Source of the DNA: a virus
Lineage: Duplodnaviria > Heunggongvirae > Uroviricota > Caudoviricetes
Direction: 5' to 3' (one strand)
Length of the DNA stretch: 44,053 nucleotides
IMG/VR virus record: IMGVR_UViG_2597489870_000002
Coordinates: 1-44,053 of that record
Shown here: piece by piece, positions 35,832 to 40,836 of the stretch
How positions within the stretch are numbered: position 1 is the stretch's first letter
Layout: each line of letters starts with the position of its first letter
The notes under the pieces: generated by a model
What the model saw: only the letters and a program-made list of their open reading frames with translations
The model's database searches: none
What the model was told of the DNA's origin: nothing
Program-made: the position numbers and the translations under genes

Positions 35832-36647
35832 ATGACGGTCTCAACCGAAGTTGACCACAACGAATACACAGGTAACGGCGTTACGACATCATTTCCTTAT
35901 ACCTTTAGGGTTTTCAATAAATCTGATCTGGTAGTGCAGGTGATTGACCCTGACGAGAATATCACTGTGCTGGCTCTTGATACTGATTACACGGTGACGG
36001 GGGCTGGAGGATATACTGGCGGGAATGTCATCCTCACAACTGCTCTGGAGAATGGATTTCGTATTTCGATAGCACGTGAACTCCCAGTTACGCAGGAAAC
36101 CGATCTGCGCAATCAAGGCAAGTTCTTTGCAGAGGTGCATGAGGATGCTTTTGATAAGTTAACTATGCTGCTTCAACAGGTTAGAAGTTGGTTTAGTCTG
36201 GCGCTGCGCAAGCCGTCGTTTGTCGCAAACTACTATGATGCTCTTGGTAACTACATCCGCAATCTTCGTGACCCGTCACGTCCTCAGGATGCGGCCACCA
36301 AGAATTATGTCGACTCACTGGCAAGCATTAATCTGTCTAAAACGCTGAGAATGCCAGAGGCAGTACCAGAGCTTCCAAGCGCTGAGCTGAGAAAAAACAA
36401 AATTGTAGCAATGGATGATTCAGGAAATCCTATCATGGTTCTGCCTGAATCTGGTTCCGCTTCAGATGTAATGATTCAACTTGCATCAAGCAATGGTTTA
36501 AAGTTTATAGGTGATGTTCAGTCTGTTATAAAATTAAATGATGCTATCGGAAACATAGGTGATAAGATTTTTTTAAAGTCTTATGTTGAAGGTGAGAATA
36601 AAGGTGGTGGGATTCTTGTTGCTGTTGATAACTCACTATTAGCGTAA
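35832..36647 (+). pseudogene. Tailspike/tail fibre, N-terminal fragment truncated by IS insertion
   Basis: N-terminus of podovirus tail-fibre anchor type (NEYTGNGVTTSFPYTF); reading frame runs into the IS left end and stops at TAA inside the inverted repeat. Confidence 0.7.
36636..36643. repeat. Target-site duplication, left copy (CTATTAGC)
   Basis: Identical 8-mer at 39343-39350 directly outside the IS termini. Confidence 0.8.
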
Positions 36648-36696
36648 CCGGCTCATTTAAACCGTCTGGTCTGTTTCCTCCGGCTCTACAAAAATA

Positions 36697-37374
36697 ATGT
36701 CCATCATTTTTAATGGACACTATCGTATGAAACACCGGACCTGGATCACTGAAGCTTTACGTCTTCACTTTGAAGAACATTTACCCCGGGTTGTGGCCGG
36801 GCGTCGCCTGGGTGTACCAAAATCAACAGTTTGTAGTATGTTCGTGCGCTTTCGGAGAGCTGGCCTTTCGTGGCCTTTGCCCGCAGGCATGTCGGAGCAG
36901 GAACTTGATGCCTGCCTTTACGGACAATTTTCCACGGTACCAGTCGTACGTCCTGAAAGCACCGTTATATCCGAAGCCCCCGTGGTAAAAAAACGTCCCC
37001 GGCGGCCCAACTTCCCTTATGAGTTTAAAATCGCCTTAGTGGAGCAGTCACTGCAGCCCGGAGCCTGTGTGGCGCAGATCGCCCGGGAAAACGGAATCAA
37101 CGATAACCTGCTCTTCAACTGGCGCCATCAATACCGGAAAGGTGGCCTGCTGCCTTCCGGAAAAAATATGCCGGCACTGCTTCCCGTGACGTTAACGCCG
37201 GAGCCGGATAATAAAATCCCGGCCCCCGCACAGGAACCAGAGCAGATAAATACACCGTCCGACAGTCTGTGTTGTGAGCTGGTTCTGCCGGCCGGAACTC
37301 TCAGGCTTAAAGGTAAACTGACGCCGGCGTTATTACAGACACTTATCCGCGAAATAAAAGGGAGCAGCCACTGA
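36697..37374 (+). CDS. tnpA: IS66-family accessory protein TnpA
   Basis: First ORF of the IS, HTH-like N-terminus; 225 aa is longer than usual, so the true start may be the internal ATG at 36727. Confidence 0.65.
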   Translation: MSIIFNGHYRMKHRTWITEALRLHFEEHLPRVVAGRRLGVPKSTVCSMFVRFRRAGLSWPLPAGMSEQELDACLYGQFSTVPVVRPESTVISEAPVVKKRPRRPNFPYEFKIALVEQSLQPGACVAQIARENGINDNLLFNWRHQYRKGGLLPSGKNMPALLPVTLTPEPDNKIPAPAQEPEQINTPSDSLCCELVLPAGTLRLKGKLTPALLQTLIREIKGSSH

Positions 37375-37721
37375 TGATATCTCTCCCTGCAGGTTCGCGT
37401 ATCTGGCTGGTTGCAGGTATCACCGATATGCGAAATGGCTTTAACGGCCTGGCATCAAAAGTTCAGAACGTCCTGAAGGATGACCCGTTCTCCGGACACC
37501 TGTTCATCTTCCGCGGACGCCGGGGTGACCAGATAAAAGTGTTGTGGGCTGACAGTGACGGACTGTGCCTCTTCACCAAACGCCTGGAGCGGGGCCGCTT
37601 CGTCTGGCCAGTCACCCGTGACGGCAAGGTGCACCTTACTCCGGCTCAGTTATCCATGCTTCTTGAAGGTATCAACTGGAAGCACCCGAAACGAACGGAA
37701 CGCGCTGGAATCCGCATATAA
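37374..37721 (+). CDS. tnpB: IS66-family accessory protein TnpB (Orf2)
   Basis: 115 aa; conserved IS66 Orf2 pattern (MISLPAGSRIWLVAGITDMRNGFNGLA). Confidence 0.85.
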   Translation: MISLPAGSRIWLVAGITDMRNGFNGLASKVQNVLKDDPFSGHLFIFRGRRGDQIKVLWADSDGLCLFTKRLERGRFVWPVTRDGKVHLTPAQLSMLLEGINWKHPKRTERAGIRI

Positions 37722-37740
37722 CCCGTTGTAAAGTGAGGAT

Positions 37741-39312
37741 ATGGACACCTCACTTGCTCATGAGAACGCCCGCCTGCGGGCACTGTTGCAGACGCAACAG
37801 GACACCATCCGCCAGATGGCTGAATACAACCGCCTGCTCTCACAGCGGGTGGCGGCTTATGCTTCCGAAATCAACCGGCTGAAGGCGCTGGTTGCGAAAC
37901 TGCAACGTATGCAGTTCGGTAAAAGCTCAGAAAAACTTCGTGCAAAAACCGAACGGCAGATACAGGAAGCACAGGAGCGAATCAGCGCACTTCAGGAAGA
38001 AATGGCGGAAACGCTGGGTGAGCAATATGACCCGGTACTGCCATCCGCCCTGCGCCAGTCTTCAGCCCGTAAACCGTTACCGGCCTCACTTCCCCGTGAA
38101 ACCCGGGTTATCCGGCCGGAAGAGGAATGCTGTCCTGCCTGTGGTGGTGAACTCAGTTCTCTGGGATGTGATGTGTCAGAGCAACTGGAGCTTATCAGCA
38201 GCGCCTTTAAGGTTATCGAAACACAACGTCCGAAACAGGCCTGTTGCCGGTGCGACCATATCGTGCAGGCACCAGTACCTTCAAAACCCATTGCACGCAG
38301 TTATGCCGGAGCGGGGCTTCTGGCCCATGTTGTCACCGGGAAATATGCAGACCATCTGCCGTTATACCGCCAGTCAGAAATATACCGTCGTCAGGGAGTG
38401 GAGCTGAGCCGTGCCACACTGGGGCGCTGGACAGGTGCTGTTGCTGAACTGCTGGAGCCGCTGTATGACGTCCTGCGCCAGTATGTGCTGATGCCCGGTA
38501 AAGTCCATGCTGATGATATCCCCGTCCCGGTCCAGGAGCCGGGCAGCGGTAAAACCCGGACAGCCCGGCTGTGGGTCTACGTCCGTGATGACCGTAACGC
38601 CGGTTCACAGATGCCCCCGGCGGTCTGGTTCGCGTACAGTCCGGACCGGAAAGGTATCCATCCACAAAATCACCTGGCCGGTTACAGCGGTGTGCTTCAG
38701 GCCGATGCTTACGGTGGTTACCGGGCGTTATACGAATCCGGCAGAATAACGGAAGCCGCGTGTATGGCTCATGCCCGGAGAAAAATCCACGATGTGCATG
38801 CAAGAGCGCCCACCTACATCACCACGGAAGCCCTGCAGCGTATCGGTGAACTGTATGCCATCGAGGCAGAGGTCCGGGGCTGTTCAGCAGAACAGCGTCT
38901 GGCGGCAAGAAAAGCCAGAGCCGCGCCACTGATGCAGTCACTGTATGACTGGATACAGCAACAGATGAAAACACTGTCGCGTCACTCAGATACGGCAAAA
39001 GCGTTCGCATACCTGCTGAAACAGTGGGATGCACTGAACGTGTACTGCAGTAATGGCTGGGTGGAAATCGACAACAACATCGCAGAGAACGCCTTACGGG
39101 GAGTGGCCGTAGGCCGGAAAAACTGGATGTTCGCGGGTTCCGACAGCGGTGGTGAACATGCGGCGGTGTTGTACTCGCTGATCGGCACATGCCGTCTGAA
39201 CAATGTGGAGCCAGAAAAGTGGCTGCGTTACGTCATTGAACATATCCAGGACTGGCCGGCAAACCGGGTACGCGATCTGTTGCCCTGGAAAGTTGATCTG
39301 AGCTCTCAGTAA
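37741..39312 (+). CDS. tnpC: IS66-family transposase TnpC
   Basis: 523 aa; N-terminal leucine-zipper-like region, Cys cluster CPACGG...CCRCDH, DDE-type core. Confidence 0.85.
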
Positions 39313-39342
39313 ATATCAATACGGTTCTGACGAGTCGCTTAC

Positions 39343-39350
39343 CTATTAGC
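39343..39350. repeat. Target-site duplication, right copy (CTATTAGC)
   Basis: Identical to 36636-36643. Confidence 0.8.
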
Positions 39351-40836
39351 AGATGATATAGTTATATTTAATGGTAATGGAGTGAAATGGAGACGTCTAT
39401 TTTTTACTGGTGAAGTAACTGTATTCGACGCTGGTTATACAGGCTCTGGCGACATTGCTCAATATATAAACAAAATAAATTCAGCAGGATATGACTGCGT
39501 TATTCCATGCTCAGGTGATTTTTCGAGTGCTATTGCAATAGATGTAAGCAAGGGCAGCGTAAGGGGGGTAAATAAATGCATACTTACCGAGATTCCAGGC
39601 GTATCTGGAGATTATGCGCTGACGATTGTTAACTCAAATACAGATTATGCTGACCGTGATGCAATTAATGCTACAGCTATCATTGACGGAGTAGCATTTA
39701 ATTTCATGGGCACCAAAAAAGTTGGTTTGGGAGGGGTAGGTACTGGGGATCTTTCAGAGTTGCGGATCAGTAACGTGGGTATGATTGGTTCCGCTGGTGT
39801 AGAATTCCTGGAAAATTCATATCGTTTGATGTTCGATAAATTTGCTATATCGAGAAGCTTTACCAACACTATCATTTTTAACTCGCCAGCAAATTCTGGT
39901 GAGGTTATTAAATTCAGTCACGGTTGGATGGTTGATAATGGTGGACCGCTAACATTTAATAACGGTCAATTTATTTTTGACTCATGCTCAATGCCTGCCG
40001 GGAAGAAAGTGGGTTATTTAGAGCCAAGTGTAATTATGCATGGCAACGCTCACGTTGTTTATGCTAACGGTAATGTCGAATTCCAGCCCGGGCAGAGCTT
40101 TGTAGCCTTTGTTGTGGATGGCAGTTCAAGGCTGTCAATCAAGGACACCACCATACTTACGCCTACTGGTTATTCAGCCATACCAATAATCGCAAATGAT
40201 GATGGGGTTGTGTCACTGACAAACTGCTCTCTTCCATTATATGACCAGAAGGATCTGGCTGCTGGCGCTGCTACTCGTCAAGTGATTGGTGGAAATAGTA
40301 AGAAGGTTATCTCCCGTGGATGCTACCCTCGGGCAGGTTTTATAACATCCAACTGGGATAAGGGTAATATAGTTAGTCCATTTATCAACGCGCTAAGTAA
40401 TGGTAGTGGTCAGTTCTCAAACTATTCCAACTGGGTTTTGGCACAAAAAGGTACAGGTGTCGTAACTGCGGGTACTGATACGGATGTCCCTAACACTGTT
40501 ATGTTTTCCAGATCACTGTATGTGAATATTCCATCGGTTGGGGCTGCTGCTGATTTTTATCAGGAATGCTTAGAATGCGAGCCAGGGCGGTATTTCCAGT
40601 TAGGTTTCTGGGCTAAAAATCAAGTTACAACAATTTCTGGAATTGAATTTTTTGATAAAGAAGGTAACTCAGTACAAGGTAAAGGAACATTTACAATTCC
40701 AACTGGTTCTACATTTAATTTCTACGCATTAATAGATGTTGTTCCTCCTGGTGCAAGTAAGGTTAGGATTGGATTTGATGTATCAGGATCGGTTGGTTCT
40801 CTTCATATCCATAATGCTATTTATGGATTGATATAA
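39351..40836 (+). pseudogene. Tailspike C-terminal fragment (beta-helix receptor-binding part)
   Basis: Continues in frame with 35832-36643 once the IS and one duplication copy are removed, restoring a 765-aa protein; Gly/Asn/Ser/Thr-rich repetitive beta-type sequence. Confidence 0.7.

Follow-up and report, generated by a model that had tools for sequence, protein, structure and literature searches.

The tailspike locus and its insertion element

The DNA analysed here (the window, 44,053 bp) matched NC_017633.1 of E. coli H10407, the diarrhoeal reference strain of enterotoxigenic E. coli (ETEC), at 100% identity. By its gene content and position, we assigned it to an epsilon15-like (Uetakevirus) prophage inserted at the guaA 3' end. 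The annotation of H10407 places the prophage between guaA and yfgI and includes an integrase. The attachment core AATCATTCCCACTCAAT, a 17-bp att repeat at 42876-42892, was recognised from this annotation and as the longest word common to both prophage-chromosome junction regions of H10407; its partner overlaps the guaA 3' end just outside the window start and delimits the prophage. The other large virion genes matched tail-tube, portal, head, and internal-virion families, and no second receptor-binding protein was found among these family matches. RefSeq flags no other pseudogenes in the prophage, and the searchable literature yielded no induction or adsorption data for it.

The tailspike gene lies on the + strand in two parts. 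The 5' part (35832-36643), identified from the ORF list, DNA matches, and PHROG, contains codons 1-270 plus two bases of 271, and covers a Uetakevirus anchor (aa 1 to ~210), a neck, and the first half of a small pre-helix domain. In its present state, the frame continues to a TAA stop inside an insertion sequence (IS), giving an ORF of 271 aa (35832-36647) that RefSeq records as pseudogene ETEC_RS14250 ('missing C-terminus') and GenBank as CBJ02124.1, 'phage tail-fibre protein'. The 3' part (39351-40836), identified from its match to PDB 5W6H, an AlphaFold2 model, and RefSeq, runs from the last base of codon 271 to codon 765 and the stop, and contains the second half of the pre-helix domain, a beta-helix, and a C-terminal beta-sandwich domain. 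Public annotation gives 39382-40836 as a free-standing 'hypothetical protein' of 484 aa (RefSeq WP_000872050.1).

Between the two parts lies an IS66-family element of 2,699 bp (36644-39342, + strand), oriented like the tailspike gene. It is bounded by two copies of CTATTAGC, at 36636-36643 and 39343-39350, an 8-bp direct target-site duplication of the kind that marks IS66 insertions. This word occurs exactly twice in the window and is absent from the opposite strand, and the chance of an 8/8 match at two fixed positions is about 1.5e-5. The IS begins with GTAACCGGCTC and ends with GAGTCGCTTAC, and imperfect inverted repeats occupy about 36644-36669 and 39317-39342, where GTAACCGGCTCATTTAAACCGTCTGG and the reverse complement GTAAGCGACTCGTCAGAACCGTATTG match at 18 of the first 26 positions without gaps. 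Elements of the IS66 family have imperfect terminal inverted repeats of ~20-30 bp that start with GTAA, and the ends of the 36644-39342 element show the same features.

Three consecutive genes on the + strand form the tnpA, tnpB, and DDE tnpC set of the family, and all their matches exceeded the curated cut-offs of Pfam and NCBIfam. The accessory gene tnpA (36697-37374, 225 aa) matched NCBIfam NF038385 with 295.8 bits (cut-off 150) and Pfam HTH_Tnp_1; the accessory gene tnpB, or IS66 Orf2 (37374-37721, 115 aa), matched PF05717 (E 4.7e-40) and NF033819; and the transposase gene tnpC (37741-39312, 523 aa) matched PF03050 (E 2.5e-103) and NF033517 (477.9 bits). In tnpC, Pfam also recognised the IS66 leucine-zipper, zinc-finger, and C-terminal domains, and the families found across the trio were PF01527, PF05717, PF03050, PF13005, PF13007, and PF13817. 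The tnpC product is RefSeq WP_000381395.1, 'ISCro1 family transposase', and the element is ISCro1 by RefSeq naming, a name that follows the product name of its transposase. ISCro1 was first named in Citrobacter rodentium. A copy in strain EC958 is given as 2,824 bp (PMC8764528), against 2,699 bp here, so either the copies of ISCro1 or the boundary calls vary.

We found no mismatch between this IS and its copies in E. coli AUSMDU00014361 and plasmid pCP131-IncFIB, and a query of the IS with 300-bp flanks matched 13 places in the H10407 chromosome. Two of the three other copies of the 2,699-bp IS that were examined have their own clean 8-bp duplication (CTTTAAAC and GGTAAGCG), while the third, with the IS boundaries used here, shows a repeat of just 7 bp (CATTATG).

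Joining 35832-36643 to 39351-40836 gave 2,298 nt, that is, 765 codons and a stop, with no internal stop; neither half carries a stop or frameshift of its own. The first-pass annotation had placed an IS66-family element with imperfect terminal repeats at 36644-39342, between identical 8-bp copies, and had predicted that removing it with one copy restores a 765-aa frame. The boundaries, the gene trio, the repeats, and the open frame bear out each of these points. These results indicate that the locus is one tailspike gene split by an IS66-family element with an 8-bp target duplication.

Domain layout and the O78-type module

In the megablast search, the 5' part matched the tailspike genes of the Uetakevirus phages PAS61, TL-2011b, VB_ST_E15, and SPNIS2, and PHROG tail-protein families spanned aa 1-234. 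The N-terminus is thus homologous to the ~205-aa anchor of epsilon15 and phiV10, as defined in PMC10408124. The context also agrees with Uetakevirus tailspikes, since the annotation of H10407 and of poultry strain E. coli E7 shows the gene just upstream of the lysis cassette in a ~40-kb prophage at guaA.

The remainder of the restored protein (aa 215-765) aligned with residues 147-697 of PDB 5W6H, the TSP4 tailspike of phage CBA120, with E 4.7e-228 (phmmer) and about 70% identity. We also compared an AlphaFold2 monomer model (block pLDDT 64-96, mostly >80, for aa 231-765) with the solved structure. Foldseek aligned it to 5W6H_A with E 1.3e-69, TM 0.70/0.76, and rmsd 3.0 over 559 columns, which agrees with a right-handed parallel beta-helix tailspike fold; identity in this alignment was 61%, and related full-length proteins lie at about 61-70%. 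The homology to TSP4, the O78 subtype, extends from the neck through D3' and the beta-helix to the C-terminal domain.

The O78 O-antigen is the substrate that TSP4 cleaves (PMC8825819; PMC10408124), and receptor-binding proteins with >=30% identity over >=60% coverage are treated as one specificity subtype (PMC10408124). H10407 carries O78 wzx and wzy, and it and all other complete genomes with an H10407-type tailspike are O78; O78 wzy was present in 40 of 5,426 complete genomes, and all five carriers of the tailspike are among the 40. Because of the ~70% identity to TSP4 and this host association, we infer that the restored tailspike would cleave the O78 O-antigen.

Three anchor types, namely Uetakevirus, P22-like head-binding, and CBA120 D1-D2, all meet the common module at aa 215. 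Codon 271 is located 56 residues inside the receptor-binding module, between predicted strands 260-265 and 276-278. The insertion is accordingly placed, by alignment and model, inside the exchangeable module, within the small domain ahead of the beta-helix. The first-pass annotation had set it between an anchor of ~270 aa and the C-terminal part; the gene is indeed split, but the border lies elsewhere, as the anchor ends at ~aa 210-215 and the module starts at aa 215.

Uninterrupted relatives and alternative readings

E. coli E7 carries an uninterrupted gene at the same chromosomal site, with 98.6% nucleotide identity over all 2,298 nt. At its empty site, the two flanks abut and overlap by exactly 8 bp, leaving one copy of the 8-mer (CTATCAGC, one SNP), and its tailspike is a continuous protein of 765 aa (98% identity). 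The tailspikes of TW14425 and APEC17 are colinear and 765 aa long, with 79% identity overall and 100% in aa 1-210, and the Salmonella diarizonae homologue P0003 is also continuous over 765 aa (75%). An acyltransferase gene follows the tailspike in the related TW14425 and APEC17 prophages and is absent in H10407 and E7.

These relatives bear directly on the reading that an anchor protein and a receptor-binding protein are naturally separate here, with the IS merely in the gap between them. In favour of this reading, RefSeq and GenBank list the downstream piece as a protein in its own right (484 aa or 376 aa). However, excision leaves a single open frame, the CBA120 TSP4 module and the 667-aa P22-like tailspikes align unbroken across the insertion point, and in the model codon 271 falls within a confidently folded domain, between two of its strands. 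A natural gene boundary in intact relatives had been named beforehand as the observation that would overturn the split-gene reading, and none was found at this point in E7, TW14425, APEC17, or the Salmonella homologues. We rejected the two-gene reading, which is scarcely credible given continuous orthologues across codon 271.

Another possibility is that the insertion is a peculiarity of the sequenced H10407, from its laboratory stock or its assembly, and not a feature of the natural strain. Among the 5,426 complete genomes, only H10407 and SEC470 carry the junction, and the SEC470 record has the same length and coordinates; the junction carriers listed were the H10407 genome (a contig in five samples), one other assembly, and an ETEC-labelled metagenome. 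Against this, the exact 271-aa product ending inside the IS occurs on 50 contigs (111 index blocks), including a second complete, chromosome-scale assembly and metagenome scaffolds, one labelled ETEC. Because these contigs come from independent assemblies, an assembly artefact is excluded as the source of the junction. A stock-specific change after isolation may still have taken place, although we consider this reading as a whole unlikely. The earlier suggestion that the insertion is recent is reasonable in a purely relative sense, because the duplication is perfect, the gene halves are undamaged, and IS copies from unrelated strains and plasmids show no mismatch to this one.

It had also been proposed that the C-terminal part could be expressed alone from a GTG at 39382. 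The GTG is in frame as stated, whereas separate expression found no support: it is the conserved internal codon Val282, also present in the intact E7 allele, and its anti-Shine-Dalgarno pairing (-2.9 kcal/mol) sits at the median for internal codons, 51% of which are equal or better. No sigma-70-like promoter site was found on the + strand between 35300 and 41100, so the 3' remnant has neither a promoter-like site nor a Shine-Dalgarno signal above background. In addition, the neck and half of the pre-helix domain are missing from the remnant, and the next in-frame ATG (39706) lies inside the beta-helix. A free O78-degrading or O78-binding protein, made from this GTG or a later start by read-through from the IS, would agree with a remnant ORF that is intact over 484 codons, with a complete beta-helix and C-terminal domain in the model, and with co-directional IS genes followed by no terminator-like site on the + strand between 39312 and 40962, from the transposase stop to the holin gene. 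A recent insertion accounts equally well for the intact ORF, and we regard such a protein as very improbable, although transcription from the IS could read through into the remnant at a low level.

Consequences and comparison with known systems

The reading that we hold with high confidence is a guaA Uetakevirus prophage of H10407 whose O78-type tailspike was split by ISCro1. The sole receptor-binding protein of the prophage would have been a 765-aa tailspike, in which a Uetakevirus anchor (aa 1 to ~210) is joined at ~aa 215 to a TSP4-type module. A 2,699-bp copy of ISCro1 entered the gene by transposition at codon 271, with duplication of its 8-bp target CTATTAGC, and left a 271-aa stub (the anchor and half of the pre-helix domain, with its TAA inside the IS) and a 3' remnant without promoter or Shine-Dalgarno sequence. 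Since the only receptor-binding protein is lost, the prophage would no longer be able to make adsorbing virions.

The insertion might also amount to more than neutral decay. ISCro1 separates the holin-endolysin-spanin genes from the promoter region of the tailspike and is oriented in the same direction, and the gap preceding the holin showed no promoter-like site. The IS might therefore cut the lysis cassette off from late transcription as well, or else bring the lysis genes and the beta-helix remnant under weak transcription of its own. In either case, the prophage would have become a domesticated element, non-infectious and possibly non-lytic, that is kept in the H10407 lineage, a reading that we judge improbable.

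For users of this reference ETEC strain, it is useful to know that its guaA prophage would be without its only adsorption protein. Public annotation can be corrected, since the 484-aa WP_000872050.1 and the 271-aa 'tail-fibre protein' are halves of one gene. An O78-type tailspike sequence on a temperate-phage anchor is now available, restorable in silico and with intact alleles in E7, TW14425, and APEC17, and could serve O78 typing or phage engineering against O78 ETEC and avian pathogenic strains. The event itself adds another case of prophage inactivation by an IS and of the swapping of anchors and receptor modules, known in kind and ordinary in route, and the split tailspike opens no new biological question.

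The element resembles ISCro1 in its tnpA/tnpB/DDE tnpC layout, 8-bp target duplication, and GTAA terminal repeats, and byte-identical 2,699-bp copies are present in other E. coli chromosomes and plasmids; compared with known ISCro1, the mechanism is unchanged and the target alone is new. The tailspike resembles those of Uetakeviruses such as Salmonella phage epsilon15 (gp20) and E. coli phage phiV10 in its homologous N-terminal anchor, in its position just upstream of a holin-endolysin-spanin cassette in a prophage at guaA, and in being a single receptor-binding protein suited to the host O-antigen (PMC10408124). It differs in its receptor-binding module, which is of O78 type here, of O157 type in phiV10, and of a Salmonella phage type in epsilon15, and, unlike their genes, the H10407 gene is broken. 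With TSP4 (ORF213) of the Kuttervirus CBA120, it shares the neck, D3', beta-helix (D3), and C-terminal (D4) module with a matching fold, whereas the 1,036-aa TSP4 begins with a baseplate anchor, XD1-3, and D1-D2 head domains, and in H10407 a Uetakevirus anchor of 210 aa stands in their place. Receptor-binding proteins of the O78 subtype also occur on other anchors, with intact genes, in P22-like Lederbergvirus prophages, Kagunavirus ESCO41, PhAPEC5, and PhaxI. Residue 215 here corresponds to residue 116 of the 667-aa P22-like proteins, with 71% identity in the common module, and this common junction on different anchors, as aligned here, fits the swapping of anchors and receptor-binding domains described in PMC10408124.

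An O78-type tailspike gene interrupted by ISCro1

The tailspike gene of the H10407 prophage lies on both sides of an ISCro1 element (36644-39342) of the same orientation. Joining 35832-36643 to 39351-40836 (both plus strand) restored in frame a gene of 2,298 nt, with 765 codons plus a stop and no internal stop, and the GTG at 39382 lies in its frame. The coordinates that the first-pass annotation had proposed for the IS, the duplication and the gene halves were all correct in the window sequence. In the whole 44,053-bp window, the 8-bp duplication CTATTAGC occurred only at 36636-36643 and 39343-39350, with no copy on the other strand. 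Between these copies the IS measures 2,699 bp, starting with GTAACCGGCTC and ending with GAGTCGCTTAC; the gene meets it at ...AACTCACTATTAGC/GTAACCGGCTC on the left and GAGTCGCTTAC/CTATTAGCAGATGA... on the right.

The terminal inverted repeats are imperfect, as had been noted, with matches at 18 of the first 26 positions. Assignment to the IS66 family held as well: three same-strand ORFs matched IS66 genes in Pfam and NCBIfam with scores well above the curated cut-offs, namely TnpA (36697-37374), Orf2/TnpB (37374-37721) and the DDE transposase with zinc-finger, leucine-zipper and C-terminal domains (37741-39312), all on the plus strand. RefSeq names the element 'ISCro1 family'. Extensions of 6-37 bp into the flanks in some megablast hits suggested a target preference of the IS or wrong boundaries; direct inspection showed copies of exactly 2,699 bp with unrelated flanks, and the apparent flank matches were an alignment-extension effect. 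A second ISCro1 copy in the H10407 chromosome (region L007, ~2,306,400-2,309,100) has 5 nt differences and lies between copies of the duplication GGTAAGCG. Since GGTAAGCG looks like a terminal repeat from a different element of the IS66 family, this copy may be an IS within an IS; the island around it, adjacent to tibA, has many IS66 relatives.

If related intact prophages had a natural gene boundary at the insertion point, the two parts could be separate genes flanking the IS. The opposite was found, and this reading was rejected, since the relatives carry a continuous gene. The uninterrupted gene of the poultry strain E7 (NZ_CP104523.1, WP_162943071.1) was 98.6% identical over all 2,298 nt and had the same place in the chromosome as in H10407, with the same lysis cassette behind it. 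When E7 was aligned to the window, the two flanks of the IS overlapped by exactly 8 bp, and the empty site in E7 was a single CTATCAGC, one SNP from the H10407 8-mer. E. coli TW14425 and APEC17 carried colinear 765-aa genes, in which identity was 100% over aa 1-210 and 88-89% over aa 211-300, dropped to 62% for the beta-helix and was 81-82% for the C-terminal domain; a 765-aa homologue from Salmonella diarizonae was 75% identical. Alignments to tailspike protein 4 (TSP4) of phage CBA120 and to 667-aa P22-like tailspikes also crossed the insertion point without a break. These comparisons show that the tailspike is encoded by a single gene split by the IS.

The junction is not an assembly error, because the identical 271-aa product, which takes its last codon and its stop from the IS, recurs on 50 contigs; among these are another chromosome-scale assembly and a metagenome scaffold whose sample is labelled ETEC. 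The three carriers shown one by one were the H10407 genome, a single other assembly and an ETEC-labelled metagenome; among complete genomes, the junction was found only in H10407 and its duplicate record SEC470.

The restored protein and the position of the insertion

The 5' part matched tailspike genes of the Uetakevirus (epsilon15-like) phages PAS61, TL-2011b, VB_ST_E15 and SPNIS2, and aa 215-765 of the restored protein aligned to PDB 5W6H, the enzymatically active part of CBA120 TSP4 (E = 4.7e-228). The 3' part gave no megablast match in the phage collection, the TSP4 relationship being visible at the protein level only, and the receptor-binding part matched no Pfam or NCBIfam family. An AlphaFold2 model made on the 98%-identical intact allele with 30 homologues had block pLDDT values of 64-96, mostly above 80, for aa 231-765, and agreed with 5W6H_A at TM 0.70/0.76 and an rmsd of 3.0 Å over 559 columns; its N-terminal 215 residues were unreliable (pLDDT <50), and interpretation was confined to the residues after them.

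The same receptor-binding module was found on P22-like head-binding anchors, in 667-aa E. coli and Salmonella proteins, and on TSP1/gp66-type heads in ESCO41, PhAPEC5, PD06, PJ16 and PhaxI. In both junctions examined, CBA120 TSP4 and one 667-aa P22-like protein, the module joins at one point (aa 215 here). Because three unrelated anchors all join it at aa 215, the anchor ends near aa 210-215; the Uetakevirus anchor has been defined as residues 1-205 of the phiV10 protein (PMC10408124). The first-pass annotation took the anchor to be about 270 aa long and put the insertion at its border with the beta-rich part, which is nearly but not quite correct: codon 271 is 56 residues inside the receptor-binding module. 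In the AlphaFold2 model it falls between strands 260-265 and 276-278, in a small domain located after short helices (210-237) and ahead of the beta-helix (start ~aa 300). This domain corresponds to D3' of TSP4, which the legend to Fig. 1 of PMC8825819 describes as inserted between the neck and the beta-helix D3. With codon 271 inside it, the IS is predicted, from the secondary-structure string, the homology junctions and the published TSP4 scheme, to bisect a folded domain rather than a linker.

Seventeen of the 27 codons differing between the H10407 and E7 alleles lie within restored codons 224-286 (window 36501-36643 plus 39351-39396), 63 codons that surround the insertion site; elsewhere the gene is ~99% identical to E7. 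Clustered in the pre-helix domain, these differences look like a small recombination patch.

CBA120 TSP4 cleaves the E. coli O78 O-antigen (PMC8825819; PMC10408124), and Uetakevirus and Lederbergvirus prophages have a single receptor-binding protein matched to the host O-antigen (PMC10408124). The O78 wzx and wzy genes are present in H10407, and of 5,426 complete E. coli genomes only 40 had O78 wzy. These 40 include all five tailspike carriers (H10407, its duplicate SEC470, E7, TW14425 and APEC17); for the four independent genomes, the chance expectation of such a match is ~(40/5426)^4, roughly 3e-9. Specificity of the restored tailspike for O78 is thus a well-supported inference, since the carriers are all O78 and fit the rule of a single receptor-binding protein matched to the host O-antigen.

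Age and consequences of the insertion

A recent insertion had been argued from the intact duplication. The data, the perfect duplication among them, fit a recent event but give no date. The IS had no mismatch over 2,699 bp to copies in the unrelated chromosome AUSMDU00014361, with a 7-bp repeat at these boundaries, and in plasmid pCP131-IncFIB, with its own clean 8-bp duplication. In the H10407 chromosome the IS query had 13 matches, so that potential donors of the element were available. Against the E7 allele, the gene halves showed 27 differing codons (15 synonymous, 12 non-synonymous), with no stop and no frameshift.

The upstream ORF runs into the IS for four bases and stops there at a TAA; its product is a 271-aa stub that comprises the anchor and neck and one half of D3'. 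Separate expression of the C-terminal part from GTG 39382, suggested earlier, found no positive evidence, because pairing of this codon to the 16S 3' end is at background level and no sigma-70-like site was found on the plus strand in 35300-41100. The GTG encodes Val282 and is also GTG in the intact E7 allele. Its best pairing (-2.9 kcal/mol) equals the median of the same gene's internal codons, 51% of which pair at least as strongly; values of -6 to -10 were reached by most of the other starts of genes that were examined in the window. The next in-frame ATG (39706, the GenBank start) falls inside the beta-helix. With an ordinary GTG and no promoter-like site, an expressed remnant was rejected; read-through from the IS could still reach it, as no terminator-like site was found on the plus strand between 39312 and 40962. 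Adsorption-competent virions have likely been lost, given that no other receptor-binding protein was recognisable in the prophage and RefSeq flagged no other pseudogene there. Our literature search returned nothing relevant on H10407 prophage induction or on IS-disrupted tailspikes in E. coli prophages.

The prophage, its annotation and known systems

The window was 100% identical to the chromosome of the enterotoxigenic E. coli strain H10407 (NC_017633.1, ~2,839,786-2,883,838, reverse strand), where the prophage lies between guaA and yfgI. It carries an integrase, a RecT/exonuclease early region and replication genes; terminase, portal, major capsid, T7-like internal virion proteins, tail tube proteins and the tailspike; and two holins, a GH19 endolysin and a spanin. 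At each end the prophage has a direct repeat of 17 bp, AATCATTCCCACTCAAT, with one copy at 42876-42892 and its partner overlapping the guaA stop just beyond window position 1 (1162 and 44244 in L003, the prophage-junction DNA). Because this repeat bounds the prophage (~43.1 kb with the IS, ~40.4 kb without), both attachment sites look intact.

A prophage-borne tRNA-Arg (anticodon TCT; 15542-15618, minus strand) lies between the terminase and portal regions. A 242-aa ORF (phrog_6762; 34629-35357, plus strand) carries zinc-ribbon repeats at its C-terminus, similar to endonuclease VII, HNH and Lar domains, and is not annotated in the otherwise syntenic E7 prophage, which aligns only to the ORF edges. 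Directly after the tailspike, an acyltransferase gene, possibly for O-antigen modification, follows in TW14425 (L011, 4857-5902) and APEC17 (L012, 4857-5905), the prophages with the 79%-identical tailspike, and a holin follows in H10407 (40837-40961 compared) and E7; the two variants of the tailspike may track acyltransferase presence or absence.

In public annotation the two halves of one gene appear as unrelated proteins. RefSeq records the 5' fragment as a pseudogene 'missing C-terminus', trimmed to 685 bp, and the 3' fragment (39382-40836) as WP_000872050.1, an ordinary 484-aa 'hypothetical protein'; GenBank has CBJ02124.1 (35832-36647), a 271-aa 'phage tail-fibre protein', and ETEC_2613C, a 376-aa hypothetical protein. 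Our search of the literature other than Crossman et al. 2010, which describes the H10407 genome, yielded no account of the split O78 tailspike. The result holds and is a tidy one, of modest practical use and low conceptual novelty.

IS disruption of prophage genes is commonplace. ISCro1/IS66, the Uetakevirus prophage at guaA and the O78-subtype tailspike module are already known, and exchange of receptor-binding modules between anchors has been described (PMC10408124). Specific here is a Uetakevirus-anchored O78 tailspike with a clean interruption, in a much-used reference strain.
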